A stretch of DNA of 64,000 bases from IMG/VR virus record IMGVR_UViG_3300028597_000007; one strand, 5' to 3'. The notes under the pieces are model-generated. The model was given only the letters and a program-made list of their open reading frames with translations, made no database searches and was not told the DNA's origin. The translations under genes and the position numbers were made by a program. The stretch comes from a virus. The stretch's first letter is position 1; every line of letters starts with the position of its first letter. Below, piece by piece: positions 1,398 to 25,335 of this stretch.

Positions 1398-2681
1398 TCA
1401 GGTGAAATGGCGCCTTGGATCAAAGCGCGTAGTTTTAAGGGCCGTACCGTGGGCTTTACCCATGAAGATGTACAGCATCATCGAACCCATGTCGGAGGCT
1501 TGACCACCAGGAGAGTTCGGGAAGCGAGCGTTCATGTCGCCCATACACTTGCCGCAGTAACCTGCACCAGGGGTCAGGCAGCGCTGAGGACTCCGCAGGG
1601 TAATCGTCTTGTTGACAATCGCGTCCAGGTTCTGCTCAGTAATGTGCACCGTCTTGCCATTGACGATGATGTAGAAGCCGATGTAGCGCTTGGCTTTATC
1701 TGCTGCCACAAACCGCTTGATACCCAGCACAGACCCGCAGTCGTCTTCGGTGATCGCATGGTTCTGGAATACCCGGATCAGGTACTGTACCGCTTCACCA
1801 CCGAGCGCTGTCTGCGCACCACGGTTGAAGGAACCTTCGCGGAGCGAGTTCGCATAGTCCGGGAGGTTCTTAAGGTTCAGGCCTTCGTCCAGAGACGTTG
1901 GGATCAGGTTCACCTGAGTACCGTCACCGAAAGCAGATTCCTCACCGTGCATGAGCAGCGTCTTCATGCGAACGATGTCGAAGTTCTTCTTACCGATGAG
2001 GTAGTCTTGCGAGTCGTCCCCCTTTACCCAGTCCTTGTCCACCTTGGACAACTCGCCTTTGATGATGGCGATGGTGGCTGGGTCGTGTAGGCGATCCTTG
2101 TACTGCTCCAGAAGCTTTTCGCGCAGTTCCCGTACCTTGGGGTCAGTCACCAGAGATTTACGCGTGGTGCCTGGTGTGAAGAGCTGCGTGAGGCCAGAGA
2201 GGATACATGCAGTAGCCTCCGTGTATCGCAGCAACTCCCAGACATAGATCTTGGCAGGATCGTTCTGGCTACGGTCTTCCGGGTTATTGGTCAGACGCTG
2301 AGCAATGATCTTCTCGATGTCTGACAGACGACGCGGGTTGGGGTCGAAAGGAATCTTGCCATTGAACGCGTAGACCACAGCCAGATGATGCCACAGCACC
2401 CAGGCGTAAGGTGCATTGCAGTCTGCCTCACATCCGATGAAGTCACCTTTCTTGAAGTCGGCCACCTCACGCTTGGAGAACAGTGGCTTGGTGATGTCTG
2501 CTTCAAAGCGAAGCTTGGACTCACCCATCTTAACCACCCACTCCTTACCTTCCACGTAAGGCTCGTACTCGCCCGCCTCACCACGGGTCAGGGAGAATGC
2601 ACGGATCGACCAGGACAAACGTTTGTACAGGCCAAGCTCCATGCATTTGAGAAAGAACAACCGCTTATCAAGCGTTTCCAT
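1398..2681 (-). CDS. virion RNA polymerase beta' subunit, C-terminal-type fragment (phiKZ gp80-like)
   Basis: RpoC-like motifs: GSFNRGAQTALGGE, ITEDDCGS, LRSPQRC...CGKCMG (Zn site) and GGQASDMGSMMLYIFMGKAHG (trigger-loop region, cf. AAQSIGEPGTQLTMRTFH). Confidence 0.88.
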   Translation of the reverse strand: METLDKRLFFLKCMELGLYKRLSWSIRAFSLTRGEAGEYEPYVEGKEWVVKMGESKLRFEADITKPLFSKREVADFKKGDFIGCEADCNAPYAWVLWHHLAVVYAFNGKIPFDPNPRRLSDIEKIIAQRLTNNPEDRSQNDPAKIYVWELLRYTEATACILSGLTQLFTPGTTRKSLVTDPKVRELREKLLEQYKDRLHDPATIAIIKGELSKVDKDWVKGDDSQDYLIGKKNFDIVRMKTLLMHGEESAFGDGTQVNLIPTSLDEGLNLKNLPDYANSLREGSFNRGAQTALGGEAVQYLIRVFQNHAITEDDCGSVLGIKRFVAADKAKRYIGFYIIVNGKTVHITEQNLDAIVNKTITLRSPQRCLTPGAGYCGKCMGDMNARFPNSPGGQASDMGSMMLYIFMGKAHGTALKTTRFDPRRHFT

Positions 2682-3507
2682 GACCCAGTACCCTTGTCAG
2701 AATTTTGTTGATCTCTGCCAAGAGGCGTTGACCTGCTTGGGAACTGCCCAGCACAGGCTCCATCAACTTGGCCACTTCTTCACGCAGGGTATCGCGCTTG
2801 AGGTCAGACATCAGTGCCATGCCAGACACCTCGACTGCCATCTGCTCAATCGGCAGTGCCTCGAACCACTTGTCGTTGTTCACGATCAGGGTGTTCATCG
2901 ACTGACCCAGTGCAGCGCCACTGCGCACGTAGTCCACGACCTTGGACTCTGGGTAGATGGCCGCGAACACACGGAAGTCGCTCAGCGCAGCGCCTGGGAT
3001 GGTGGACTCCTCATCCGAGAGCAATGGCTTGGATTCCATCGACTCGCCCAGCCGTTTGATCAAGCTGGGGGATACGGAAACGATCCAGTCAATCAGGTGA
3101 CCATCGTGGTTCTTACCGACCATCTCGAACAGTTCGGTGAGGATGTCGGTGTTGGAGTTACCCAGCTCATGGATGTCAATGCCGTCTGGGTAGTCCAGGT
3201 GTGATACACCTTCTGCCGTGTCCCAAGTCAGGAGGAACTCCAGCAGGTCGGCAGTGGTGGAGATTGCACTAGGCTCGAATTCGATCTCAACGCCAAATTG
3301 AGCATAGGCAGCCAAGATCCCATCGATCATCATCTTCTCAGCGTTACCTGCGATGACTTCAGGTTCAAGACCCTGCTCACCCTTGATGATGTGCTCGATG
3401 CGATCGGTGTGTCCGGTCATCCCGCAGCGATAGAGCAGGTTGATGCAGTGCATCAGCTCTACGGTGCGGTTGGGGTGATAAACCGCGTTAAAGAATTGTT
3501 CAAGCAT
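2668..3507 (-). CDS. conserved phage hypothetical protein (279 aa)
   Basis: Coding-like codon bias; AGGT SD; 14-nt overlap with the RNAP gene start implies translational coupling. Confidence 0.75.
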   Translation of the reverse strand: MLEQFFNAVYHPNRTVELMHCINLLYRCGMTGHTDRIEHIIKGEQGLEPEVIAGNAEKMMIDGILAAYAQFGVEIEFEPSAISTTADLLEFLLTWDTAEGVSHLDYPDGIDIHELGNSNTDILTELFEMVGKNHDGHLIDWIVSVSPSLIKRLGESMESKPLLSDEESTIPGAALSDFRVFAAIYPESKVVDYVRSGAALGQSMNTLIVNNDKWFEALPIEQMAVEVSGMALMSDLKRDTLREEVAKLMEPVLGSSQAGQRLLAEINKILTRVLGHGNA

Positions 3508-3594: not shown

Positions 3595-4485
3595 ATGGCA
3601 AATGGCAAGAGCGGCGCGTTCGGTAGCCGCAAAGGTATCAAGACTCCAGCGGTCATGGTTCAGGGAAACCAGCTGCGTGTGGCAAAGGACCCAGCCCCAT
3701 GGTTCGCTGACTTCGACTCGCTGGCGGCACAGTGCACCGCACTGACCACCTCCCCGGCAATGATCATGCCGTACTTCGGCGACGCCGAACTGATGGCCAA
3801 GATCGACCGTCAGGGCGTTAACGATGCCACCAAGGCATTGATGGAACAGATCAAGCAACAGAAAGAACGTCTGGCTGCACTGGTTGCTGAGACCAAGGCC
3901 ATGCGTGAAGGCGTCCCGGCCATGGACGGCAAACCTGCTCGTGCCCCGATCACCAAGGTCACCCAGGACAACACCATCGAGCTGCTGAACCACGGCGAGC
4001 AGTTCCAAACCTTCATGGATGACTGGCTGCGCATCATCTACTTCTCCATGGACAAGGTGCTGGACTTCTTCCGCGCCCTCGGTCAGGACATCCCGGTACT
4101 GTGCCCTTACAGCCAGGGCTTCGTGAAGACCGAGCAGAACATGACCCCAGAAGAGCTGAAGGCGGCCTCCGGTGCCAGCCTCGACGAGCTGGCCGCAGAA
4201 GTCGCCGAAGAAGATCACCTGGGCAAGATGATCCTCGGCGTACTGCAGGCAGCACCGCTGAAGGCGCACCAGCGCAAGGCCTTCGCCAAGATGATCGAGG
4301 TCACCCCTGAGCAGTTCAACAAGCTGATCAAGGGCGACTACCGCCAGTTCTCCCTGACCAAGCTGCGTTCCATCCATGAGAAGATGGACGGCCCTGCCTA
4401 CGAGCAGGAACTGGCAGCTGTCGAGCAGACCGAACTCCAGCAGATGGCAGAAGCTGCCGAATCCACCACTCAAAAGGTTGAGTAA
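3595..4485 (+). CDS. hypothetical protein with a C-terminal XRE/HTH_37-like helix-turn-helix
   Basis: AAGGA SD; C-terminal LGKMILGVL...AKMIEVTPEQFNKLIKGDYRQFSLTKLRSIHEKM matches the XRE pattern A..LGVTQP.VS.L..G....FS...L. Confidence 0.7.
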   Translation: MANGKSGAFGSRKGIKTPAVMVQGNQLRVAKDPAPWFADFDSLAAQCTALTTSPAMIMPYFGDAELMAKIDRQGVNDATKALMEQIKQQKERLAALVAETKAMREGVPAMDGKPARAPITKVTQDNTIELLNHGEQFQTFMDDWLRIIYFSMDKVLDFFRALGQDIPVLCPYSQGFVKTEQNMTPEELKAASGASLDELAAEVAEEDHLGKMILGVLQAAPLKAHQRKAFAKMIEVTPEQFNKLIKGDYRQFSLTKLRSIHEKMDGPAYEQELAAVEQTELQQMAEAAESTTQKVE

Positions 4486-4487
4486 CC

Positions 4488-6116
4488 ATGCAAGGTTCCG
4501 ACATCGAAAGCGAAGCACCAGCGCCGGATGATTCCGATCTGGTGCATGAGGCCGAGGCTGTTGCGCAGGTAGAACTGCCGGCCGAAGAACGTGCCCCGGC
4601 CGAAGAAAAGCCGCGCACTGAAATGCACGACGACGAAGACTCCGACCTGCCCAATGAAGACCAAGCGTCTTCCGAAGCCGGTAAGCCGTTCTTCGAAGCC
4701 GACCACTGGCAGAGCGACAAGACCTACCAGAAGGAGCCGATGGTTAAAGACCGTCCGGCTAACTTCGAACCCCCGTTCACCTTGATTGTCCCCTCGCTGA
4801 ACACCAAAGACGCTACCCGCGTTGCTGAAGCGCTGGAACCAGTCATCAAGCATGTCTCTCCACAGACTGCTGAATGGCTCCGCCGCATTGTGACCAGCCA
4901 GTCGATGATCGTGGCCAACGGTCAGTTCGAAGCTTCTCTGCAACGTGATGGCTCGCTCTGGCTGCAAGCACCTGAACACGACGGCATCAAGCTGGTCGCT
5001 CAGGTGCCCGCCATTGCACAGCCTGCACCTGGCACTATCCTGACCGGCCAAGATGCTGAGATCCACATGGCTCAGCAAACCAAGACCTATGCCCGGATGA
5101 TGTTCCCCCTGTACCACACCGGTATCTGGTTGAACGTCGCAGTGCCCCACGGCTCCGAGCTGCACGTCCTGGAAGAAGCACTGGCTGCTGCCAAGTACGA
5201 CCTGGGCTACATGACCAAGGGCCTGGTTTACTCCAATACCTCAGTCATGCAGAACATCGCGCTGGTCAACTTCGTGTTGGACCATGTGATCAACTCTTCG
5301 GCGGAACACACCACCACTGCGTTCCTGAAGAAGGTGATTCGCATCACCGACATTAACTTGATCGCTGCGAACATGTCGTCGGCTATCTATCCGTCGGGCT
5401 TCCCGCTGGAGCGCCCGTGCTCTGCTGAGCCGATGAAGTGCCACAACGTTACCAAGGGCCTGCTGCGCCTGTCCAAGATCATCTGGACCGACGACAACGG
5501 CCTGTCGGCTTACCAGAAGAAGTTCATGGCTACTCGTCTGGCTGGCCAGAAGAAAACCGAGGCGGACTTCAAGAAGTATCAGGAGGAATTCCCCGGTGTT
5601 ACTCAACGTGTTGTCGAAATTGCTCCTGGCATCAGCGTTCTGCTCATGCCTCCAACTATCGAACAGTACGAGCAGTCCGGCTATTCCTGGATCGAGTCGA
5701 TTGAGCGTGGGGCGAACGCCATGCTCAACACCCCAACTGGTCCTGAACTGAACGCTCACATGACTGCGCAGTATCAACTGCAGTCGATGCGCCAGTACGC
5801 CCACTGGGTAGACGCGATCATTTACCCGAACGACGTGTCGGTACGTGACCGCGAGACCATCAACAATCTGCTTGCCAAGCAGTCGGATAACACCGACCTG
5901 GTTGACAAGTTCATTGCTGCGGTCAAGCAGTTCATCGAAGACTGTGTTGTCTCGGTCGTCGGCATTAACAACTACAGCTGCCCATCCTGTGGTAAGTCCC
6001 AGACTGCCGAAGGTTCGCGCAATCCGAAGTTGATCCCCCTCGACCCGGTCCACACTTTTTTCACCCTCAGCGGCCTGAAGACTCAAACTACTCTCTCGAA
6101 AAACTCGGAGCACTAG
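4488..6116 (+). CDS. tail/baseplate assembly chaperone-like protein with C-terminal CPSCG (T4 gp26/gp51-like or gpG-like)
   Basis: 542 aa; acidic N-terminal extension; Cys motifs CSAEPMKC and YSCPSCG near the C-terminus; carries a T6C slippery site near its end. Confidence 0.55.
   Translation: MQGSDIESEAPAPDDSDLVHEAEAVAQVELPAEERAPAEEKPRTEMHDDEDSDLPNEDQASSEAGKPFFEADHWQSDKTYQKEPMVKDRPANFEPPFTLIVPSLNTKDATRVAEALEPVIKHVSPQTAEWLRRIVTSQSMIVANGQFEASLQRDGSLWLQAPEHDGIKLVAQVPAIAQPAPGTILTGQDAEIHMAQQTKTYARMMFPLYHTGIWLNVAVPHGSELHVLEEALAAAKYDLGYMTKGLVYSNTSVMQNIALVNFVLDHVINSSAEHTTTAFLKKVIRITDINLIAANMSSAIYPSGFPLERPCSAEPMKCHNVTKGLLRLSKIIWTDDNGLSAYQKKFMATRLAGQKKTEADFKKYQEEFPGVTQRVVEIAPGISVLLMPPTIEQYEQSGYSWIESIERGANAMLNTPTGPELNAHMTAQYQLQSMRQYAHWVDAIIYPNDVSVRDRETINNLLAKQSDNTDLVDKFIAAVKQFIEDCVVSVVGINNYSCPSCGKSQTAEGSRNPKLIPLDPVHTFFTLSGLKTQTTLSKNSEH
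6056..6062 (+). other. candidate -1 programmed ribosomal frameshift site T TTT TTC
   Basis: X XXY YYZ heptamer in the correct frame of the 4488 gene; the -1 frame is stop-free from 6056 to 6598. Confidence 0.6.
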
Positions 6117-6190
6117 AGCCTTCACAAATCCAAACCGAAGCCGGATTATCAGTTAACACTAAGCGCCACGTTAACGATCCGAACTTCGGT

Positions 6191-6598
6191 TTGGACACCG
6201 ACCTTTATGACACAGAGCTGGCGCGCATCCGCGAGGTGATCCATGAGACAGGTGATAAGCCTGACTATGTGGACTCCGAGATGATGATGCGCACGGTGTA
6301 CGAGTCTGCGTTCGGTATACACAACCACTACGGGCCTAATCAACATCCTTTCGCTTTGGTCGCGGCTCATCCAAAGGAAGATTTTGTTCCGTACTCCAGT
6401 CGGTTCCGTGACTATGCGGCTTACATCAATGCGCGGGTCTACGAGACTACCGGGATTCCAATGGACAAGTTCTTTGATCGGCCTCGTGCCGAGATTGAAA
6501 TGATCATGGGTCTTGTGCGAGTCAGCAACCGCAAGCAGGCACACAGCGCTGAAGAGATTGCCGCGGCAGCGCGAGCAGCTCAGCAGGGCAAGAAGTAA
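6191..6598 (+). CDS. gpT-like C-terminal chaperone segment, probably expressed by frameshift from the upstream gene
   Basis: Only a TTG with no SD; the frame stays open upstream to the slippery site; YINARVYETTGIPMDKFFDRPRAEIEMIM resembles the short helical T-type segments that follow tail chaperones. Confidence 0.65.
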   Translation: MDTDLYDTELARIREVIHETGDKPDYVDSEMMMRTVYESAFGIHNHYGPNQHPFALVAAHPKEDFVPYSSRFRDYAAYINARVYETTGIPMDKFFDRPRAEIEMIMGLVRVSNRKQAHSAEEIAAAARAAQQGKK

Positions 6599-6611
6599 TG
6601 GGGAGTCTACA

Positions 6612-6899
6612 ATGATCGACAACCGCATGATGCGTCACGCTATCATGGGACATGAGGAGGGGGATGATCCACGCCCCTCCCGCTTTGTGGTGGATAACCA
6701 CACACGTCGCCTGATCCCTTACCGTGACACGTACACGGAGAGCCAGGTCTGTACCAAGTTCGGTATCACCAAGGGCCAGCTGCGTAAAGCAGTGAAGTCT
6801 GGAGGCTTCCCGAAGCCTACCAAGTACGGTCCAGGCAACAAGCCGTGGTGGGCTGACACCATCATCGACAAAGTGTCCCGTGTTGACGAAGACGAGTGA
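6612..6899 (+). CDS. AlpA/excisionase-like helix-turn-helix protein (95 aa)
   Basis: GGGAG SD before ATG 6612; YTESQVCTKFGITKGQLRKAVKSGGFPKPTKYGPGNKPWW fits the AlpA pattern (HTH followed by G.FP.P...G...W). Confidence 0.7.
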   Translation: MIDNRMMRHAIMGHEEGDDPRPSRFVVDNHTRRLIPYRDTYTESQVCTKFGITKGQLRKAVKSGGFPKPTKYGPGNKPWWADTIIDKVSRVDEDE

Positions 6900-6942
6900 C
6901 GGCATAACCTCCCTCCCCGCAAGGGGAGGGAGGGCTTTATGC
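6897..6942. terminator. bidirectional hairpin with GGCATA/TATGC flanks (element 2)
   Basis: CCTCCCTCCCC-GCAA-GGGGAGGGAGG (6908-6933) between convergent genes; the polymerase stop TAA lies inside the right-hand flank. Confidence 0.85.
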
Positions 6943-8688
6943 TGCGTCTTTGTGTTCCTCGTCGTACAGTGCCAGCAGTTCGTTCGAAGCAGGCAGGCCC
7001 AGCAGTTGTTGTGCGATCATGTTACCGTTGACATGACCACCAGTTAGATCGATACCGATCCATCTCCACTGATCCTCCTCCATGCCCTCCACAGATGACA
7101 GTTCCGTTTGCGTTGTGAACTTGTCAATGTTGAGCATGTCCTGCAACTTAGGATACGTTGACACCACGTCGATGTCGGATACGTGCGTGAACAGTAATGG
7201 AACATGTCCTCGCATGTCAGACACAATGTCGTCGTCTGGTTCCGGTCCCATGTAAGCAGGTAGTGTGACGATCCAGTTTCCAAGGCCAGGGCTGGCTTGG
7301 TCCACCTCCGTTAACATCTCGTCGGAAGTAGTACCCGCCATCAGCTTGTACTTCTGCAGGAAGAAGTGCAGGTCGTCAGCGATCATCCGTGGCTGGGAGT
7401 CGTAGTTCTTGTACTCGGAGCACTTCAGAAGAGCTGGCAGGCACATGGCGATGTCGTTGGTGGTTTCATCCAGCATTTCTACCGAGATGTCGTCCCACAA
7501 GTTGTAGATGCAGTATTCCACAGGGAAATACTTCTGCATGAACTGGTGCCACTCTTTCTTCACGAACCCGTCAGCTTCCGTGAACTTAAGCTTGCCGCCC
7601 AGCTTGTGCTTACGCAGCAGATAGTCCAGGTTGTACTCGGGGTCGTTCGCCGATGCCGTGCGGATACGCTTGTACAGAAGCATCGAGTCACAGATGACAA
7701 AGGAAGCCTGGTTGGTCACCGTGTGCCATTGGTCAATCGGGTTGATTGGAACCTTGGTGTCTTTACCGCCGTCCTTCTTGACCTTGTGTGCCGCGCCTTG
7801 GTTCCATTTGAAGTTACGGAACTTCTTAGGAATACGGGGATCGCAGAATACGTCAGCCGGGTCATAGCCAGAGTCACGTAAGGCGCGTTCTGATTTGGGA
7901 ATATCGAACGCCATGTTGAAGATGGTGACGTAGTCTGGTTGCCATTCATGGGCTGCCTCAAAGCTACGCTGCACCAATTGAGCCGGGAAGTCATGGATGT
8001 TGATTTCCATGGTCTGCGGGTCAATGCCACGTTTCTTTAAGATCGGCCCTAATAACTCTTCAGCCTTGTCGCGCACCAGTTGAATGAAGCGTTCTGGTTT
8101 CTTGTCTTCAGCAGACAGCGCAGACTCATCAATCCAGCTGCCCAGAATGTTCATGCTGACATTCTTTTTGTTGGTCATCGACGCGATAATGATCTCCTCT
8201 TCTTCGGAGTTCATATTCGTCTCGATATCGTAGACCGCCACGTTACTTGGGGTAGGTGTTCCACCCCAGCGATCGCGGTAACCACGCTTGACCAACACCG
8301 GTGTAGATACGTCCGCACCGTACAGGTAAGGGGACCTGGCAAGCTGTCTCAGACCGCCCCGAGCATTGGGGTTGCCGAGGGCGCGAGCGACCTTATTATG
8401 TAGTTCATGCTGACTGCAAGTGAACTTCCGAAGCTGCGAGATAGGTGCCCACGGGCGCTTGTCTTTATGTGTCCTGTACTTTTCCAGAGTGACGTAAAAG
8501 TCACGCTGGTAGTTGTGGATCAGACGCAGGTTAGGAATAGGGGGACGCCCGTCCTTGCAGTGAATCAGTTCTTTAACGACGACCACGTCATTAGGCGAAT
8601 AGTCGTTAGCCTTCGAATAAGTTGCGTGCACACATTCGAAGCGGTCGATCTCTTCCCGATCGGGGAGATTTGGATACATGAATGGCAT
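6937..8688 (-). CDS. split family B DNA polymerase, N-terminal 3'-5' exonuclease plus motif A part (phiKZ gp82-like)
   Basis: ExoI VYDIET, ExoII FNMAFDIP, YNLDYL, ExoIII YCIYNLWD, PolB motif A DIDVVSTYP; motifs B and C absent. Confidence 0.85.
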   Translation of the reverse strand: MPFMYPNLPDREEIDRFECVHATYSKANDYSPNDVVVVKELIHCKDGRPPIPNLRLIHNYQRDFYVTLEKYRTHKDKRPWAPISQLRKFTCSQHELHNKVARALGNPNARGGLRQLARSPYLYGADVSTPVLVKRGYRDRWGGTPTPSNVAVYDIETNMNSEEEEIIIASMTNKKNVSMNILGSWIDESALSAEDKKPERFIQLVRDKAEELLGPILKKRGIDPQTMEINIHDFPAQLVQRSFEAAHEWQPDYVTIFNMAFDIPKSERALRDSGYDPADVFCDPRIPKKFRNFKWNQGAAHKVKKDGGKDTKVPINPIDQWHTVTNQASFVICDSMLLYKRIRTASANDPEYNLDYLLRKHKLGGKLKFTEADGFVKKEWHQFMQKYFPVEYCIYNLWDDISVEMLDETTNDIAMCLPALLKCSEYKNYDSQPRMIADDLHFFLQKYKLMAGTTSDEMLTEVDQASPGLGNWIVTLPAYMGPEPDDDIVSDMRGHVPLLFTHVSDIDVVSTYPKLQDMLNIDKFTTQTELSSVEGMEEDQWRWIGIDLTGGHVNGNMIAQQLLGLPASNELLALYDEEHKDAA

Positions 8689-10516: not shown

Positions 10517-10526
10517 GGTGATCGCG

Positions 10527-11864
10527 ATGAAGATGATCACTGAGAACCTGACAGAGGAGTTGTTTACCGACGACCCTCTGATTCCCAAGGGGATCATCAC
10601 GGCCTACGAGACGATCAAACGAGATCGAATGGTAAGCCAAGAGATGGTGAGCCCCTACATCCAGAACTTCCCGATGAACGTGTCGCTCAGCAACTTTACC
10701 GTTGAGCCATCGGAGAAAGGATTGGAAATCGCGCTGGAAGGCTTTGCGGTGCTGTTTAAGGTGACTGCCGGTGTTTTGCTGGTGTCTGCCCTGGGTGTGT
10801 GCATCTTCAACTTCATACGCTCCCGTAAAGCGGCTGAAGCCACTGCAGATGCGGCCACCAATGGTGTACTCCTGCATAAGGAAATCACCAAGCTGGTTCA
10901 GGGTATCCGTGCAGCCAAAGGCTTCCATGACCGTACCATCAAGATCAAGGCAAGTGACATCCCGCTGGGTCCAACCCGGCGTGCCTTGGGCCTGCATGGC
11001 GAGATTATCTACCCCGAGTGGGCAGATCGTTTCTACGCCTACGGTCACGACCAGCACTTCACCAACGCCATTGCCTCCAAGGTAGCAACCGGTCAGTTCT
11101 TCAGCATCACCGAGCATCTCATGACGCCGATGGCTGATTACATGTCGGATCTGGCAGGTCGTGTCAAGCAGCTGACCAAGATGGTGGATAACCTCCCAGC
11201 CACCATCAACTCCGGTCGCCTGGAACAGGTCGCTCGTGACATCGAGCAACTGGACACCCGTTCTATCCGTGGCACGTTCCTGGGTCACCTCGAACGAGTT
11301 TATGGCAAAGAGCTGCCGCAGCCTCGGGTAACCTTCCAAGCCAACAGCGCGGAGTTACTAGATGCACGGGTAACGGCGCTGAAGGAGTTCTACGACAGCA
11401 CTCGGGACGACAAGAAGTTCGTCCAGAACCACTACCAGGCCAACGTTGATCGTTGGAAGGCTGGTGATGTCGAACAGATGCTGGGGCGTATCCCAGAAAT
11501 CTGCGCCCAGGCTGCAAAGCTTGGCGCTGCTCCTTCGCTGTCGACAGGTAAGTCCATCGTGGACGAATGCGAGCAACTGCGTCGCAAGATCTCTCCGATC
11601 GAAGTACCTGAGATGATTGATCAGGCGCTTAAGAACACCCTCGAAAGTATCCGACTCGATTCTATTGCGTCGGTGAACCTCTTCGAAATGGTGATCAATG
11701 AACAGCGCCAGTTCACCATCTACATCCAGGACATCCTGAACCAGACCATCGAGTGGGCAACCGCTGTGGGTGCGTTCACCAAGCCAGCTGATCCACAAGC
11801 AGCTCGGCGGTTGATGAGCGACGCTCAAGATGCAACCAAAGCCACGCGCAAGGTAAAACTTTAA
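10527..11864 (+). CDS. internal head/ejection protein paralog with propeptide ending IALE
   Basis: AAGGTG SD before ATG 10527; SLSNFTVEPSEKGLEIALE|G followed by a hydrophobic helix, shared with the next two genes. Confidence 0.7.
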   Translation: MKMITENLTEELFTDDPLIPKGIITAYETIKRDRMVSQEMVSPYIQNFPMNVSLSNFTVEPSEKGLEIALEGFAVLFKVTAGVLLVSALGVCIFNFIRSRKAAEATADAATNGVLLHKEITKLVQGIRAAKGFHDRTIKIKASDIPLGPTRRALGLHGEIIYPEWADRFYAYGHDQHFTNAIASKVATGQFFSITEHLMTPMADYMSDLAGRVKQLTKMVDNLPATINSGRLEQVARDIEQLDTRSIRGTFLGHLERVYGKELPQPRVTFQANSAELLDARVTALKEFYDSTRDDKKFVQNHYQANVDRWKAGDVEQMLGRIPEICAQAAKLGAAPSLSTGKSIVDECEQLRRKISPIEVPEMIDQALKNTLESIRLDSIASVNLFEMVINEQRQFTIYIQDILNQTIEWATAVGAFTKPADPQAARRLMSDAQDATKATRKVKL

Positions 11865-11872
11865 GCCACCCT

Positions 11873-11902
11873 GCCCCCTACAGGTTCACGCTTGTAGGGG
11901 GC
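11873..11902 (+). terminator. intergenic hairpin abutting the next SD
   Basis: GCCCCCTACAG...TTGTAGGGGGC just after the 11864 stop and 2 nt before AAGGAG; no TATG flank. Confidence 0.5.
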
Positions 11903-11916
11903 TCAAGGAGTTTTTT

Positions 11917-14900
11917 ATGAAAGAGTACGATCTGGCCAGCTTGGCCCAGGCGTCTGACAAAGATCTGGTTGAGTTCCTCGGTCAGAACGAGCGTGTCATC
12001 GGTGAGGTGACTGCCCACATTGCCAACCTGGAACGCCTCAAGGGTACCAGTCAGGCACATGCGCTTGGCTACCAGGAATACCTGCCCGACGAAATCACCA
12101 TGCAGGACTTTGACACTCACCTGTCGAAGAAAGGCTACCAGATGTCCACCGAGGCTCTGCACACCATCCTGCTCGTGGCCGCATCCGCCGCTGTCGTCGC
12201 TGGCATCGGTATCATCGCCTACAAGCTGATCAAAGCTTCGATGGCCAAGGAGCCCAAGTCCGCCGACTTCCTCAAGAAACAGAAGGAAGTTCAGCAGTTC
12301 GCCATGCATTTGATCAAGGTGCAGTGGAGCGATGCCGCCGCCCCTACCCGTGAAGCGCTGAAGACCAAGTTCCTGGCCGACTGCGTCAGCGAAGTAACTG
12401 CGAACCTGTCCGAAGCAGACCTGCTGAACGACCCGTTCAACGCCTACGTGCGCAGCGAGTTCAAGACCTCCGGCGTTCCGTACATGGCACTGGTTGCCGG
12501 CATGCGTGGTCCAGCCTCGATCTTCTCTGGCGCTGCCACCATCTACCTGACCAACGTCAAGGAATCGCTGGAAGCCTTCCGCCGTGAGTTCCTGGACGTG
12601 ATCGCTGGTGCGCCTGATATCACCGACCACCAGATGATCAACCTGGTCAATGGCCTCAAGTGGAACCAGATCGACAACGGTAACGCTGCCGGTGTTCAGG
12701 CTCTGATGGGTTGGATCAATGCCATGGGTATCCCGTCCAGCAACCGTCTGGAAGAAGCCCTGCGCAATGCCAACGACATCCTGTCGGCCCCGGCCACCAT
12801 CGACCAGATCAATGCCTACGACCAGCACATCCAAGATGAGCTGATTGGCGAGGGCACTGTTCCCAAGGTCATTGCAATGATCCAGTCGCTCAAGGCCACC
12901 GGCAAGTACATCGAAGGTGCCAAGGGTAACTTCGTGGCTGGCGAGAAACGCTCGCAGCAAGTGGTTGACCTGTTCAAGGCCCAGATCGAACGTGCGCAGC
13001 TGCTGACCGACACCATCCCTCTGATCTCGCCACTGGTGACCCTGGAGTCCGACAACATCGTTCGTCGCTCCAAGTGCATCGCCAATGCCGGCAAGGCCCT
13101 GCTCAATGCCATTGAAGATGTGGCAGACAAGCTGGAAGACAAGGAAGCGGCCAAAGAGATCCGCACCGCGTTGGACGAGATTGCCCGTGCGTCCAAACAA
13201 GTGCTGAAAATGAAAACCGAGTCGCTGGTAGAACTTCCTGCCCCGGTCAGCTACGGCACCATGATGGACCTGCAAGCCAAGTCCGTGTGGATGGAACTGC
13301 TGAAGTCTTTGGCAGTGGCCGCGATGATCGGCCTGGCCGTGTTCGCCATCCAGGCGCTGGTATTGTCTATGTTGGGTCTGCAGTCGATGGCTGCATCCTT
13401 CGCTGGCGGCATCGTTTATTTCAACAAGAACGGTAAGCGTATCACCCCTGGCGAAGCCGCCGACGCCATTGCCAAGACCGTTGAGGAAAAGCGTACTGGC
13501 AAATACGGCGCGACCCTGGTAACCGGCCAACGCAATCTGCCATTCATTCTGAACCGTAGCCATCTGGACTCTGGCTTCAAGGACGTGGCTGCTGGCGTTG
13601 AGAAGTCGCTGAACGAGTTTGCCAACGAGCTACCGCGCGGGGGTGAGATTACCAGCGAGGCTATGGTTGCCGCCGCCAACAGCGGTATGAAGCACCTTAA
13701 GCGCACCATCTCCATTTTGGAAGGTCGTTTGAAGGGCATGAAGGTCAAGGTACCAGGCGGCGACCCGTCGGTTAAAGCCACCACCCACAACCTGCGTGAC
13801 GCGATGGATGCTTACGTTGACGAGTGGTTCAACCCTGAAAAGGCGAACTACGCTATCGTGCGTCAGGGCATCGACACCACCTGGTTCGGCGTCATGGACC
13901 CGAAGATGGCCGAGCACGTGGACGCCAACGCCAAGGTTCTGACCGACGGCATCGTACGCTTTGCCAAGTCCATCCCGAACGCAAGTAAGGATGAACTGAC
14001 CAAGCTGTCGCCAGAGGCCCAAGAAGCCCATGCCAACTTCAGTCAGGCTCAGGCATACCTGGCAACCCTCGGCTTCGTCATTACTGAAATCACCAAGAAG
14101 GCAATTGCCGACGGTGGTAAAGGTATGCAGGCGGTAAAAGACAACCTCAAGATGAAGGGCGAGGATATTGGCGGCATCGAGGTCGAGGATGACTTCGGTG
14201 GTGACGACATCGTTCAGTATCAAGAGGATCTCGATCCCTTGGTTGACATTGCAGACGCCATGGGCGACCTGTATGTTGACGAACAGACTGATGCAGTGAT
14301 GGCCATCGAGAAGATGAGCGTCAAGACCAAGCGCTTGCTGATGACCGCTGGTATCGTCCTCGCATTGGGTGCTGGTGCTTATCTGCTGCTGTCCATGTCC
14401 CAGAACCGCCGCAGCCCTTCCTCGTTTGCAACTGACAAGATGTTCAAGCAAATCCAGAAGGACCTGGAGGCCAGCTTGGCATCTGAAGAGTTTGCAGCCC
14501 GGATGCAGGCTTCCAGTGAGGAGCTGGGCGATGCCTTGCAGAAGGACTTCGACCGCATGCGCAAGCAAGCGGAGAGCCTTCGCCAGAAGACCGCGCAGCC
14601 GACCGAGAAAGAAGTCGGCGGCCAGCGTGTTGACGCAGGTGCCGCGCGCCCTGCTTCTGTGCATCCGCGCATCGGCGAGACCGGTTCCCCAGTGGCCGGG
14701 TCCAACAATGCGTCTCAGGCCAACCCTGAAACCACTTGGATCAACGACGTACCACACAGCACCGAGGCCCTACAGATTGCCAAGGAAGTGGACGAACTGA
14801 TCGCCAACCTCGGCAAGTTCGACTACAAGGGTGTGCTGCGTAGTCGTCTGGTTGAGCGTGCCCCTGGCATGGTTGCTTTGAACATGGCCACCGGTGGCTT

Positions 14901-15657
14901 CGACAAGGCTAGCGAGATCCTTTCGGGTGACCGCACGCGTCGTGTCGATAAGTTGATGGACCTCATGACCCACGTCATGGAGAACATCGTTGAACCGGTC
15001 ATCGATGTGGTCCGCGGTCAGGGCGATACCAATCCACAGGCTGAGCAGGTCTACGACAAGGTTGTGGCTGCCATCGAAAAGGCAACCGCCGATGCTACTG
15101 CCGAACGACTGCTCGACGAGGCCTACATGGCTCGCACCGAGGAAGACTTCGCAGACTGGTCCAAGCCTTGCACCGAGTCCGATGTGGTGGAAGCCATGGG
15201 TCGCTTCGATCCGAAGTGCGTGCAGTCGGCCGAGCGCTACTACCTGGACGAGGCCAAGTCTTACCACAGCTTGTCGCAAGACCTGGACTCGATGTGGAAG
15301 GACAACAAGGACTTCCTCAACCGCGAAGTGGGTGATCGGTTCAACGAGCTGAAGGGTAACCGGGACGCAACCTCCAAGCTCATCCGCCGCATGGAAGAGT
15401 TCAAGCCAACCTTCAACGTCATTGCGCGTTCGATCAAGGCTCATGTGGCCATCAGCGACGTCATCTTCGAGGCCAGTGAATTCTGCCTGCGGGTGCATCG
15501 CAGTGTGCAGCGTGAGCTGATCAAGTCCCTGCAGTTCCACCAGATGAAGGTGGCCGAGCTGGATGCCCGTATGGGTAAACAGTCCGAGACGCTGGGCAAG
15601 CTCTCGAAAGAGATGCAGGATCAGATCAACCGCTTCAATGATCGCAAAGATACCTAA
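11917..15657 (+). CDS. large multi-module internal head/ejection protein (1246 aa)
   Basis: AAGGAG SD; propeptide ending MSTE|A; three hydrophobic helices; further MAIE and HSTE sites. Confidence 0.75.
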   Translation: MKEYDLASLAQASDKDLVEFLGQNERVIGEVTAHIANLERLKGTSQAHALGYQEYLPDEITMQDFDTHLSKKGYQMSTEALHTILLVAASAAVVAGIGIIAYKLIKASMAKEPKSADFLKKQKEVQQFAMHLIKVQWSDAAAPTREALKTKFLADCVSEVTANLSEADLLNDPFNAYVRSEFKTSGVPYMALVAGMRGPASIFSGAATIYLTNVKESLEAFRREFLDVIAGAPDITDHQMINLVNGLKWNQIDNGNAAGVQALMGWINAMGIPSSNRLEEALRNANDILSAPATIDQINAYDQHIQDELIGEGTVPKVIAMIQSLKATGKYIEGAKGNFVAGEKRSQQVVDLFKAQIERAQLLTDTIPLISPLVTLESDNIVRRSKCIANAGKALLNAIEDVADKLEDKEAAKEIRTALDEIARASKQVLKMKTESLVELPAPVSYGTMMDLQAKSVWMELLKSLAVAAMIGLAVFAIQALVLSMLGLQSMAASFAGGIVYFNKNGKRITPGEAADAIAKTVEEKRTGKYGATLVTGQRNLPFILNRSHLDSGFKDVAAGVEKSLNEFANELPRGGEITSEAMVAAANSGMKHLKRTISILEGRLKGMKVKVPGGDPSVKATTHNLRDAMDAYVDEWFNPEKANYAIVRQGIDTTWFGVMDPKMAEHVDANAKVLTDGIVRFAKSIPNASKDELTKLSPEAQEAHANFSQAQAYLATLGFVITEITKKAIADGGKGMQAVKDNLKMKGEDIGGIEVEDDFGGDDIVQYQEDLDPLVDIADAMGDLYVDEQTDAVMAIEKMSVKTKRLLMTAGIVLALGAGAYLLLSMSQNRRSPSSFATDKMFKQIQKDLEASLASEEFAARMQASSEELGDALQKDFDRMRKQAESLRQKTAQPTEKEVGGQRVDAGAARPASVHPRIGETGSPVAGSNNASQANPETTWINDVPHSTEALQIAKEVDELIANLGKFDYKGVLRSRLVERAPGMVALNMATGGFDKASEILSGDRTRRVDKLMDLMTHVMENIVEPVIDVVRGQGDTNPQAEQVYDKVVAAIEKATADATAERLLDEAYMARTEEDFADWSKPCTESDVVEAMGRFDPKCVQSAERYYLDEAKSYHSLSQDLDSMWKDNKDFLNREVGDRFNELKGNRDATSKLIRRMEEFKPTFNVIARSIKAHVAISDVIFEASEFCLRVHRSVQRELIKSLQFHQMKVAELDARMGKQSETLGKLSKEMQDQINRFNDRKDT

Positions 15658-15666
15658 GGAGGTAAT

Positions 15667-17031
15667 GTGAGCGACTATTCCATGAAGATGGAAGAGCTGC
15701 TCGAAGACCTTGAAGGCAATGATTGGGTGGCTGACCCTGACGCGCCTCTGAGATTAGAGGACGAAGAAGGGAACGTCATCCCAATGCCTGGGGACAACGA
15801 ACAGCCTTCGGAAGAGGAGCTGGACGATGCCGTATTCCTAGCACATGGTCGCGAAACCGAATTGGTCAACATCATGGAAATGCTCCAGAGTTCTGGCGGC
15901 GTATCCCGTGACATGGCCATGCAGTTCCGCGACCTGCTTCCGCCAGAGATGGCGATGGAATCGTTCACTGTCCAGGTGACGCAAACCAACCATGTCATGG
16001 CCATGGAGTATGTGGGGACTGCAATCAAGATCGCGGCCGCTGCCGGCGTGATCGCAGTATTGGGTGCGGTGGGTTATCTGATCTATCGCATTACCAAGTC
16101 CCGCAAACGCATGCCTAAGAACAAGTTGGACAAAGCGGTATCTGCGGCATACGGCACTGCTGAGGAAAAGCTCAAGGTTGTGTTGGAAGGGCTCAAGCAT
16201 GAGTACCCTGAAATCGAGCACGTCGAACTCAAGTGGAACAAGGAAGAGGCGCTTGTCCAGATGGCAATCCAATGCCAGATGCAAGAGCTGGACCTGCGCA
16301 TGATGACTGGGACCTACAAGTCCTTCGTTGGCATGGTGGGTTCTGATGCCTTGGTGCAGGCTAATGAGATCAAGAAGTTCTTTGATACGTCAGTCTTCCC
16401 AGAACTTGACAAGATGTCCAAGGCAGGTACGGGCAAGGATATTGACGACATCACCAAAAAGATCCAGGAATTCAAATTCACGGATATGGTGTCCAAACAC
16501 CTTGATCGTTTCGGTCACGACATGCAGGTCAACTTCGAGCGCCCTGATCAGGTCTGTGAGAAGTTCCGTGCCAAGTATTCCCGTAGCGTGAGTGTTGAGG
16601 AGGCGGCCAGTAAGCTGAAGGGTGTTAAGCCCAACGGTGTGGACGTCCCTGAGCAGGCTGCTGTTGGTCTGTACAAGGCACAGGACATCATGACCCAGAT
16701 GTTGGTCAAGGTGAAGAACTACGAGAAGAAGCTGGAGAAGACGAAAGAACTCCCAGCCGATTACGTGGCTCAGATCAAAGGCGTGTTGGAGAAGTGCAAG
16801 CAGCCTCTCAAATCCTTGGGTGATGTATTCAACATCCTGGAGATGGAGATTGCTTCGCAGACCCGCTGTGCCAAGATCAAAGGCCTGGCTGTAGCGGAAG
16901 GTTACAAGAACGTAGCCAACCACTACAAGGAGAAAGCGTTGACCGACAAGGAACACCGCGCATCCTACCGAGCCTGCGTCAAAGTGCTGGACAAGTCCTT
17001 CGACGACATCCGTGGCGCCATGAAGTTGTAA
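15667..17031 (+). CDS. internal head/ejection protein paralog (454 aa)
   Basis: AAGGAGG SD, GTG start; acidic propeptide; LPPEMAMESFT...VMAME|Y followed by hydrophobic AIKIAAAAGVIAVLGAVGYLIY. Confidence 0.75.
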   Translation: MSDYSMKMEELLEDLEGNDWVADPDAPLRLEDEEGNVIPMPGDNEQPSEEELDDAVFLAHGRETELVNIMEMLQSSGGVSRDMAMQFRDLLPPEMAMESFTVQVTQTNHVMAMEYVGTAIKIAAAAGVIAVLGAVGYLIYRITKSRKRMPKNKLDKAVSAAYGTAEEKLKVVLEGLKHEYPEIEHVELKWNKEEALVQMAIQCQMQELDLRMMTGTYKSFVGMVGSDALVQANEIKKFFDTSVFPELDKMSKAGTGKDIDDITKKIQEFKFTDMVSKHLDRFGHDMQVNFERPDQVCEKFRAKYSRSVSVEEAASKLKGVKPNGVDVPEQAAVGLYKAQDIMTQMLVKVKNYEKKLEKTKELPADYVAQIKGVLEKCKQPLKSLGDVFNILEMEIASQTRCAKIKGLAVAEGYKNVANHYKEKALTDKEHRASYRACVKVLDKSFDDIRGAMKL

Positions 17032-23406: not shown

Positions 23407-23957
23407 ACGATCGCGGGTTCGACGTCTACAGCTCAGGCTTTGCACGCCTGAGCCCGCTGCAAGCCGGTACGGGCTACAAAGAGCCTGATACTATGGCAGT
23501 TGCGCACTATGATGGTATGGTGAAAGGTTTGGTGTCGATCGTTGACTCCAAGACTTTCGACAGCGTCGTGCGTAATGCTTTGGCTCTGTTGGGTACTGGC
23601 CCTGACTGGATCACCGTCCAGGCCTTTAACCCCAACCTGTCGAAGTACCAGGTCGAGTTCATGGTTGACACTGTCAATTATATAGTCACCGGAAAACGCC
23701 GGTACTTGCTCGCCACTTGGCGCGAACTTCTCGCCGAGATGAACAACAACGGTTCCGTTAAGCCTATTGTTATGGGCGGACGATCCGTGAACCCGGATAT
23801 CAAGGTGCCCGCAGAACTTCTGAAAGGGCATCCCGCAGAAATCATGTCCCGCTGGATTTCCCGAGAGGGTGGTGTAGTGGATCTGATAGAGTCCCTCCAT
23901 CTCATGTTCGGTGGAGACATCGAAGTGGGTGAAGTGGGCTCGCTAGTAGCTAGCTAG
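23403..23957 (+). CDS. conserved virion-region hypothetical protein (184 aa)
   Basis: 4-nt ATGA overlap with the upstream stop; GGAG SD. Confidence 0.7.
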   Translation: MNDRGFDVYSSGFARLSPLQAGTGYKEPDTMAVAHYDGMVKGLVSIVDSKTFDSVVRNALALLGTGPDWITVQAFNPNLSKYQVEFMVDTVNYIVTGKRRYLLATWRELLAEMNNNGSVKPIVMGGRSVNPDIKVPAELLKGHPAEIMSRWISREGGVVDLIESLHLMFGGDIEVGEVGSLVAS

Positions 23958-23991
23958 CGCTAACGCAATCAACAACTCTGGAGTTAGACAC

Positions 23992-25227
23992 ATGTCCCGT
24001 AACTTCCGTTCCACCCGTGGTCGCATGGCCATCGAAAGCATCGAAGGCGCTGACCAGACCGCAGCTGAAATCGACATCGACACCGACAGCCAACACGGTG
24101 ACGGCGCCGACGCCGCCCTGCTGGATCTGAAAGACGTCAACACCGAAGTCGCCGAAAACGACGGCGCCGTCGACGAGCTGGAAAACACCGTTGCCGCTCT
24201 GGAAAGCCTGCTGGAAACCGCAGAAGCTGCCCAGGAAACCGGCGGCCTGGACCCAGTCGCTGCCGACCTGCTGCAGAAAGCGGTCGAAAACGAAACCGCT
24301 CCGCTGGGTACCCCGGCTGAAGAAGTGGTTCCTGCTCTGGAAAACTTCACCTCGCCTTCGAGCCGCCGCCAGGCGACCGTCATGGCCTGTGAAGGCATCA
24401 AGGACTGGATCGACAAGGTCTGGGCCAAGATCAAAGAGCTGATCCAGAAAGGTCGCGACCTGGCCAAGAAAGCCTACGTTGCCGTCAAGCAGTTCATCCA
24501 GCGTATCGAGCCGCGCATCAAGGCGCTGCAGGAAGACGCCGGCAAGCGCAACTTCTCGATGCCGAAGTCCGGCAACGTCAGCGACAAGGGCGAGTGGGCT
24601 CTGTCCGAAGTCGGCAAGCTGCAGCAGCTGAGCGACGCCGTTCTCGACGGCTACACCAAGGCCGCCATCGCGCACGCCAACAGCATCGCCTCCGCCCTGT
24701 CGGCCGGCGACGAAGTCAAGGCTGCCGAAGAAGGCAAGACCGAAGAGAAGGCCGAGTTCAGCGTACCGTCCAACCTGGACGCGCCTGCCAAGGTCCTGCT
24801 GGCCATCAAGAACCTGCCGGGCGGCCGCGAGTTCGTTCCTGCTGGCGACACCATGACCATCCGCACCAAGCAAGGTGGTTCGACCGGTGGCTCCAACGCA
24901 GCTTCCGCTGCCAACGAGCAGACCATCACCTCGGCTCTGACCACCCTGGCCACCGTTGCCAAGGCCGTCGTCGGCTACGAGAAGAACTTCCAGGAAAAAG
25001 ACCGCGCTCAAGAAGGCGTGATCAAGGCTGGTGACGCTTTCGCCAAGAAAGCCAAGGCCAACGACAAGGGCGACGATGCTGCTGCCCGCGCCGCGATCAA
25101 CGCTGCCAAGAACGCTGGCCGCCTGCTGGACCAACCGGCCAAGGACACCCTGTCCTACCTGGTTACCGCCATCAACGGCTACTGCACCACCATCGCCGCT
25201 CACCTGAAGCACTACGACAAGAAGTAA
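23992..25227 (+). CDS. inner body / internal head protein (phiKZ gp93 family)
   Basis: Acidic propeptide with AIE|S, ALE|S, ALE|N and ACE|G maturation motifs; extreme codon bias comparable to the capsid gene. Confidence 0.8.
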   Translation: MSRNFRSTRGRMAIESIEGADQTAAEIDIDTDSQHGDGADAALLDLKDVNTEVAENDGAVDELENTVAALESLLETAEAAQETGGLDPVAADLLQKAVENETAPLGTPAEEVVPALENFTSPSSRRQATVMACEGIKDWIDKVWAKIKELIQKGRDLAKKAYVAVKQFIQRIEPRIKALQEDAGKRNFSMPKSGNVSDKGEWALSEVGKLQQLSDAVLDGYTKAAIAHANSIASALSAGDEVKAAEEGKTEEKAEFSVPSNLDAPAKVLLAIKNLPGGREFVPAGDTMTIRTKQGGSTGGSNAASAANEQTITSALTTLATVAKAVVGYEKNFQEKDRAQEGVIKAGDAFAKKAKANDKGDDAAARAAINAAKNAGRLLDQPAKDTLSYLVTAINGYCTTIAAHLKHYDKK

Positions 25228-25255
25228 TTCTTCCGTAGCGCCTGGTGCGTTGTGA

Positions 25256-25291
25256 ATAAAAGCCGGGCCTTCGGGTCCGGCTTTTATGCCG
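25256..25291 (+). terminator. hairpin with TATGCCG flank (element 4)
   Basis: ATAAAAGCCGGGCC-TTCG-GGTCCGGCTTTTAT then GCCG; between co-directional genes. Confidence 0.85.
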
Positions 25292-25335
25292 CAGGTTGGA
25301 CATGCTATGCAGACCATTCCTTCAAGGACATTATC

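Follow-up and report, generated by a model that had tools for sequence, protein, structure and literature searches.

Whether two overlapping reading frames at positions 4488-6598 of the IMG/VR virus record IMGVR_UViG_3300028597_000007 are two genes or one recoded unit is the question raised by this locus. The window, to which all coordinates below refer unless another record is named, is the whole analyzed stretch of 64,000 nucleotides (nt). An earlier sequence-only reading had proposed that a programmed -1 frameshift at the heptamer T TTT TTC joins a 542-amino-acid protein to the open reading frame (ORF) downstream. Comparison of orthologous loci gave this proposal strong support, and judging from these sequences, we think it probable that the locus makes two protein forms by programmed -1 ribosomal frameshifting.

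The zero-frame ORF (4488-6116, plus strand) encodes the short form of 542 amino acids, the orthologue of phiKZ gp77 and Goslar gp081, and terminates at the stop codon 6114-6116 (plus strand). Its product carries a CPSCG motif and a Cys4 site composed of C311 (5418-5420), C318 (5439-5441), C498 (5979-5981), and C501 (5988-5990), all of them invariant. The sequence agrees with the earlier reading that T TTT TTC lies in frame 18 codons before the stop: the zero-frame codons ACT TTT TTC (T523-F524-F525) occupy 6054-6062, T6056-T6061 and C6062 form an in-phase X XXY YYZ heptamer (6056-6062, plus strand), which is the proposed -1 slip site, and F525 is 18 codons from the end of the short form. The -1 frame, described as free of stops from 6056 to 6598, is open from stop to stop already from 5996 (5996-6598, plus strand). 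A shift at the heptamer would add 178 amino acids read from 6062-6595 (plus strand), ending at the stop 6596-6598, and the computed fusion of 525 + 178 = 703 amino acids corresponds to the predicted size of about 700. The part read after the shift is composed of a trans-frame linker (6062-6124, plus strand), which overlaps the short form along its final 18 codons and is predicted to be disordered [predicted local distance difference test score (pLDDT) below 50 for residues 1-18 of the AlphaFold2 (AF2) model], and a folded C-terminal extension domain (6125-6595, plus strand), which corresponds to phrog_12109 and phiKZ 76.4 and is conserved in the 66 loci described below.

The comparison covered the window, nine annotated GenBank loci including phiKZ, and 66 IMG/VR loci gathered by a peptide pattern far from the slip site, which together gave 66 distinct junctions. 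On a conserved Phe-Phe pair of codons, which precedes the stop by 35-104 nt, all 66 have a run of T (T5 in one, T6 in 18, T7 in 32, and T8 in 15), and in none of them is the -1 frame interrupted between the T-run, or a point ahead of it, and a position 130-170 amino acids past the zero-frame stop; conservation of the run and of the open frame across orthologues, the check suggested with the earlier proposal, was found throughout. The same layout is present in nine more distant phages, namely Goslar, SPN3US, Wellington, two Vibrio phages, Ea35-70, Moabite, Proteus phage 10, and Centimanus. The T-run is located at the same two codons in 75 of the 75 loci possessing one, the lone exception being Xanthomonas phage RTH11 (OQ790161.1, L005:2431-2643), whose T7 stands against T8 in its relative LucasX. 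Past the T-run, the coding sequence (CDS) annotated in RTH11 (627 amino acids) follows a junk frame, while the two remaining frames hold the normal tail and the extension, and this exception is probably a homopolymer error in the deposit. The zero-frame tail past the T-run is also kept in sequence (T-L-x-G-Q...). The best 150 of 1311 homologous clusters found for the 542-amino-acid protein by an exhaustive HMMER search have lengths of 477-645 amino acids and all match to near the C-terminus; because no in-frame fused form of about 700 amino acids was found among these 150 clusters, the two-frame layout appears to be maintained. A separate search for longer, naturally fused homologues of the extension also found none, which we rate as weak evidence.

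Conservation of the T-run exceeds what the amino acids demand. When expected counts are taken from the Phe codon usage of the individual genes, TTT encodes the first Phe in 66 of 66 loci (21.5 expected) and the second in 48 of 63 (20.6 expected). The wobble base ahead of the two codons is T in 53 of 66 loci (17.1 expected), and the canonical heptamer T TTT TTN is likewise present in 53 of 66. The gene in the window uses TTC for Phe 14 times and never uses TTT outside the slip site. Because of this codon usage elsewhere in the gene, and because the pattern recurs in every orthologue examined, the T-run pattern is, at the level of sequence, far beyond chance. Between the T-run and the zero-frame stop, the -1 frame is free of stops in 66 of 66 loci, where 23.0 were expected from the -1 frames of the same genes. 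In several loci the -1 frame opens merely 0-12 nt ahead of the T-run, and the nearest stop is 35 nt past it; therefore, the stretch in which a shift could occur family-wide is confined to the T-run and the following 35 nt. When the window was compared with its three closest relatives (51-67% protein identity), 6051-6082 (plus strand), comprising the slip site and 20 nt downstream, formed a block of 32 invariant nt, the longest in the 2.1-kb locus (the next longest is 14 nt), and 87% of 6054-6098 was invariant versus 43% overall.

How would the two forms arise? We infer that most ribosomes would read 4488-6116 through to its stop and give the 542-amino-acid Cys4 zinc protein, while a minority, with tRNA-Phe on T TTT TTC (6056-6062), would slip back one base and then read 6062-6595. 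In the resulting 703-amino-acid long form, the last 17 residues of the short form, the second half of its terminal helix, would be exchanged for the disordered linker and a mostly helical domain of about 155 residues. U_UU.U_UU.Y heptamers and U_UU.Y tetramers are among the efficient -1 motifs in Escherichia coli (PMC4066793). The third base of the second slip codon is free in the family (T in 48 loci, C in 15, and G in 3). Tandem or P-site re-pairing of tRNA-Phe predicts such a pattern of T, TTT, TT, and a free third base, and the free base fits tRNA re-pairing better than selection for homopolymer length.

Some observations weigh against frameshifting, at least as a uniform and efficient event. 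No conserved downstream hairpin was found in the 66 loci, and no SD-like (Shine-Dalgarno-like) stimulator is visible upstream of the site in the window, the same outcome as that of the sequence-only reading, which had seen neither. The 60 nt downstream of the window site fold no better than shuffled sequences (z 0.17), although z was below -2 downstream of the site in 12 of 66 loci versus 3 of 66 for a control segment. Since a conserved stimulatory hairpin was not found, the efficiency of the frameshift may be low, and we would expect it to be fixed. In addition, 13 of the 66 loci, mostly of the Psa21-like clade, have N TTT TTT or a T5 phase instead of the canonical X XXY YYZ, and in most of them a candidate start codon also precedes the extension domain, so that the domain may be expressed separately in some lineages. 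Vibrio phage pVp-JHP1101 (CTT TTT ACG; L081:2170-2240) and PS119XW (ATA TTT TTC; L008:2405-2420) have no more than T5 at the site, and in these two lineages frameshifting may have been weakened or replaced by independent initiation.

Among the alternatives, the one that survives best is transcriptional slippage, in which the phage or host RNA polymerase (RNAP) would add one U on the T-run and the fusion would be translated in a single frame by an unshifted ribosome. Homopolymeric T-runs are classic sites of such slippage, the same two proteins would be expected, and runs of T7 or T8 are present in 47 of 66 loci. Genes of E. coli avoid UUUUUUU whatever the frame, perhaps on account of slippage (PMC4066793), and the 13 phase-0 loci that lack a canonical heptamer still have T6. 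The conservation is nevertheless position-specific (T at -1, TTT, TT, and a free third base) rather than directed at maximal run length, and the T-run never reaches into the following codon. The window has T6 only and one relative T5 only, lengths that are short for polymerase slippage. We therefore regard transcriptional slippage as unlikely, with ribosomal frameshifting the preferred explanation.

A second alternative is that the locus consists of two ordinary genes, the T-run being a by-product of the conserved Phe-Phe and the downstream gene being started either by TTG 6191 or a non-canonical codon, or through termination-reinitiation at 6114-6116. Gene callers do annotate two genes everywhere, and the frame offset is that of ATGA-type coupled overlaps. 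Conservation of Phe-Phe alone, however, leaves unexplained why TTT is used in all 66 loci and a wobble T in 53 of them in genomes that prefer TTC, and two ordinary genes would not need a stop-free -1 frame back to the T-run in every locus. The distribution of start codons is also difficult to reconcile with separate genes. The sequence-only reading had noted for the downstream ORF only a TTG start without an SD, and indeed TTG 6191-6193 (plus strand) is its sole ATG, GTG, or TTG, with no SD upstream; it lies eight codons past a conserved H-V-x-x-P-x-F-G motif. In 53 of 66 loci there is no ATG, GTG, or TTG in the -1 frame between the T-run and this motif, which in four loci is located even upstream of the zero-frame stop, and in other loci the next start codon is reached as many as 134 codons into the domain. 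The remaining 13 loci do have a candidate start ahead of the motif, one of them with a GAGG SD, and this speaks for independent initiation there. The small-protein gene calls in databases span 105-206 amino acids, which indicates that no conserved start is apparent. In the 219-nt "intergenic" gap between phiKZ gp77 and 76.4 (between PHIKZ077 and PHIKZ076.4 of AF399011.1; L004:3021-3238), about 73 codons of the -1 frame are open, conserved, and without a start, and PHIKZ076.4 (81 amino acids) begins at an ATG deep within the conserved domain. Similarly truncated annotations of the extension were seen in pEa_SNUABM_54 and FLC9.

The predicted structures bear on the same alternative. An AF2 model of the extension, built on an alignment of 52 -1 products, had a pLDDT of 83.5; the first 18 residues, corresponding to the overlap, were disordered, and the fold began at about residue 24 (nt 6125) with a beta-hairpin, after which come the H-V-x-x-P-x-F-G motif (starting near 6167), a helical bundle, and a terminal helix of 35 residues. 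Because this fold starts upstream of TTG 6191, initiation there would cut into the domain, and the match of the -1 product to phrog_12109 likewise begins at nt 6155, upstream of that codon. The model of the 542-amino-acid protein (pLDDT 88; predicted template modelling score 0.85) places the Phe-Phe pair within the last helix (residues 520-541), so a shift would replace half of the terminal helix. No orthologue among the 66 combined Phe-Phe codons lacking a T-run with a conserved independent start downstream, the pattern that the earlier reading had named as contrary to its proposal. Taken as a whole, two ordinary genes are improbable, more so than polymerase slippage, and since most relatives lack a start codon of its own for the extension, the domain would exist mainly or only as part of the frameshift fusion. 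An artefact or decay, that is, one gene split by a homopolymer sequencing error or a pseudogene, is hardly credible, for although homopolymers are error-prone and RTH11 has T7 where its relatives predict T8, the same two-frame layout occurs in about 85 independent assemblies, the zero-frame tail is conserved with its stop 35-104 nt on, and a fused ORF is absent among the best 150 of the 1311 homologue clusters.

To which gene does the recoding signal belong? The match of the 542-amino-acid protein to phrog_4585 spans the entire protein (E 2e-98). A tblastn search with it retrieved 201 phage records, all of them phiKZ-like jumbo phages, with PHIKZ077 as the orthologue. In the supplement of Prichard et al. 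(2023), phiKZ gp077, Goslar gp081, and RAY gp267 are listed as core gene cg18, a "hypothetical protein". cg18 adjoins cg19, cg20, and cg21, and the gene order in the window is the same as that in the core-gene table. Because of the full-length homology and the synteny with cg19-cg21, the gene at 4488-6116 is, on sequence grounds, the Chimalliviridae core gene cg18 (phiKZ gp77). The PHROG matches and this synteny also bear out the assignment of the virus to the phiKZ-like jumbo phages. A megablast search of the locus against GenBank phages gave no match, and no close sequenced relative is present there. The neighbors, identified by PHROG matches, are the gene for a virion-RNAP subunit (cg20; 1398-2681, minus strand), a gp79-like gene (cg19; 2668-3507, minus strand), and the DNA polymerase gene (cg21; 6937-8688, minus strand), and therefore the locus lies in a replication, transcription, and head block and not in a tail module.

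The function of the pair is less clear-cut than its recoding. The sequence-only reading had identified a G/GT-type tail-assembly chaperone pair; position, size, and the Pfam result speak against membership in that family, while an assembly-chaperone role stands as plausible from the fold resemblance described below. Neither part matched any Pfam family at E <= 0.01, the flanking genes are cg19, cg20, and cg21 rather than the major tail or tube and tape-measure genes, and the upstream protein has 542 instead of about 140 amino acids, so lambda G/GT membership has no support. The additional claim that the downstream protein resembles T segments proved unfounded, as the extension domain matches no solved fold: Foldseek against the Protein Data Bank and VIA-align against 48,161 chains yielded no meaningful match to the two models (best Z 5.3 for the 542-amino-acid protein; for the extension 5.5, confined to its terminal helix), and no solved tail-chaperone chains were among these matches.

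A different resemblance emerged from predicted structures. In a Foldseek search of BFVD, the 542-amino-acid protein had more than 15 matches annotated as baseplate hub assembly protein, chaperone, or hub subunit, ranking from position 21 on after its own orthologues and including proteins of ACP17, SP-15, VH7D, AF3, and CP220, all of them predicted structures only. The best of these was a "Baseplate hub assembly protein, T4-like" (E 5.9e-5; template modelling score 0.61 normalised on the target). The neighbor cluster in the ESM Atlas and two GenBank annotators agree with the T4-like hub resemblance. PF12322, the Pfam family of T4 gp51 and gp26, did not match the 542-amino-acid protein of the window and was matched below threshold by 3 of 80 relatives (best E 0.0021). 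Comparisons at the sequence level went less far. Alignment of the family with that of gp51 by hhalign reached a probability of 25.8% over 56 columns (residues 449-506 versus gp51 37-93), compared with 97.4% for the positive control gp51 versus gp26, and alignment of the family with the single T4 gp51 and gp26 sequences covered the CxxC knuckle alone. No PHROG cross-matches were found between T4 gp51/gp26 and phrog_4585/8054. Thus, the link to T4 gp51/gp26 would be a fold-level resemblance, as far as the models go, and not family membership. The idea that the fusion reconstitutes a gp51-like protein was also rejected, since the extension aligned with gp51 and gp26 in hhalign at probabilities below 1%.

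Judging from these models, a role in tail or baseplate assembly, with the two forms made in a set ratio, is plausible; the pair would act in such assembly, and the extension would equip a fixed proportion of the molecules with an additional module for binding or oligomerisation. In a more specific and only tentative form, which we consider possible but would not favor, cg18 and its extended form would be the tail-assembly chaperone pair of the Chimalliviridae: a gp51/gp26-like hub or tape-measure factor whose ratio of forms is set by the -1 frameshift and whose extension docks another component of the tail. That would amount to an independent origin of the G/GT strategy on an unrelated fold, within a group without a known tail chaperone. 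The main text of the preprint on the Goslar virion structure does not mention gp081 by name, which, as far as that text goes, is consistent with a non-structural factor acting in assembly. A phiKZ co-fractionation proteomics study lists PHIKZ077 in its supplementary tables without distinguishing the forms.

In its genetic layout, the locus is reminiscent of lambda gpG/gpGT, P2 E/E+E', and the corresponding genes of Mu and HK97, in which ribosomes slip by -1 at a U-rich or A-rich heptamer toward the 3' end of the first ORF and make a minor, C-terminally extended fusion, the downstream segment has no start of its own, and the arrangement is kept group-wide despite little sequence identity. Some relatives of the window (L001-type) even share the P2 heptamer T TTT TTG. 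Unlike the lambda and P2 chaperones, to which no sequence or fold relationship was found, the upstream protein is a large Cys4 protein, and cg18 is located among RNAP, head-protein, and DNA polymerase genes and not between those for tube and tape measure. The likeness to T4 gp51/gp26 (PF12322, phrog_150), the hub assembly catalyst and hub protein, lies in the predicted fold of the 542-amino-acid protein and its C-P-x-C-G zinc knuckle; the window protein is twice as long and below the Pfam and PHROG thresholds, and the extension domain has no counterpart in gp51 or gp26. The T4 function requires two related products, gp26/26' and the paralogue gp51, as two forms are proposed for cg18, but in T4 they come from internal initiation and gene duplication rather than from a frameshift. 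T4 gene 26 (L078:3803-4429) is annotated with the nested second product 26', and in the record of Acinetobacter phage Berthold the homologue of gp51 carries the name "tape measure protein assembly chaperone".

In T7 10A/10B and IS3-family orfAB, a low-level -1 shift late in the ORF adds a C-terminal extension to a fraction of the molecules, and cg18 would be similar in this late addition of a C-terminal part, while the proteins are unrelated. IS3 sites are usually accompanied by a downstream pseudoknot or hairpin; none is evident at cg18. The heptamer of the window, U_UU.U_UU.C, is among those used by insertion sequence (IS) elements (PMC4066793).

The immediate flanks of the recoded pair were also inspected. 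The upstream gene (3595-4485, plus strand; 296 amino acids) occupies the position of phiKZ gp78, with its stop 2 nt ahead of the start at 4488, and a counterpart gene is present at this position in all annotated relatives; the window product is about twice as long as these positional counterparts (140-230 amino acids). The next gene downstream (6612-6899, plus strand; 95 amino acids) has a GGGGAG SD at 6600-6605 and lies outside the recoded pair. The sequence-only reading had the unit bracketed by XRE-type helix-turn-helix and AlpA-like regulators. These two labels have a weaker footing than the rest of that reading: on the upstream side there is only a sub-threshold HTH_37 match in residues 226-265 of the 296-amino-acid protein (21.4 bits against a cut-off of 27), and on the downstream side only a weak match of the 95-amino-acid protein to a PHROG DNA-binding protein (E 3e-4). 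Elsewhere in the window, long ORFs of 448, 1246, 454, and 455 amino acids (10518-17031 and 23950-25317) have no PHROG match at E <= 1e-5; that of 1246 amino acids (11917-15657) is conspicuous among otherwise well-matched Chimalliviridae genes.

As the earlier reading had supposed, no such recoding has been described for this lineage in the literature searched, including a 2026 jumbo-phage review, where no paper joins Chimalliviridae or phiKZ with frameshifting, and none of the 20 annotated records of the locus contains a joined CDS. Mentions of "gp77" in the literature were set aside as belonging to other numbering systems (the Goslar decoration protein, a PhiPA3 virion-RNAP subunit, and the PCH45 small terminase). 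The type of mechanism is known; what is new is the site, a core gene of unassigned function, and we take the family-wide recoding signal in these sequences to be real.

If frameshifting operates as proposed, every nucleus-forming jumbo phage, including phiKZ, PhiPA3, 201phi2-1, Goslar, RAY, and SPN3US, would make an unannotated protein of about 700 amino acids, and a conserved 150-amino-acid domain of cg18 would have been missed or given a wrong start in all records checked. Annotation such as that of the "intergenic" gap past phiKZ gp77 would have to be corrected, and synonymous slip-site mutants making the short-only or the long-only form would offer a genetic handle on cg18. It would be a family-wide recoding event in a group whose gene expression is studied intensively.

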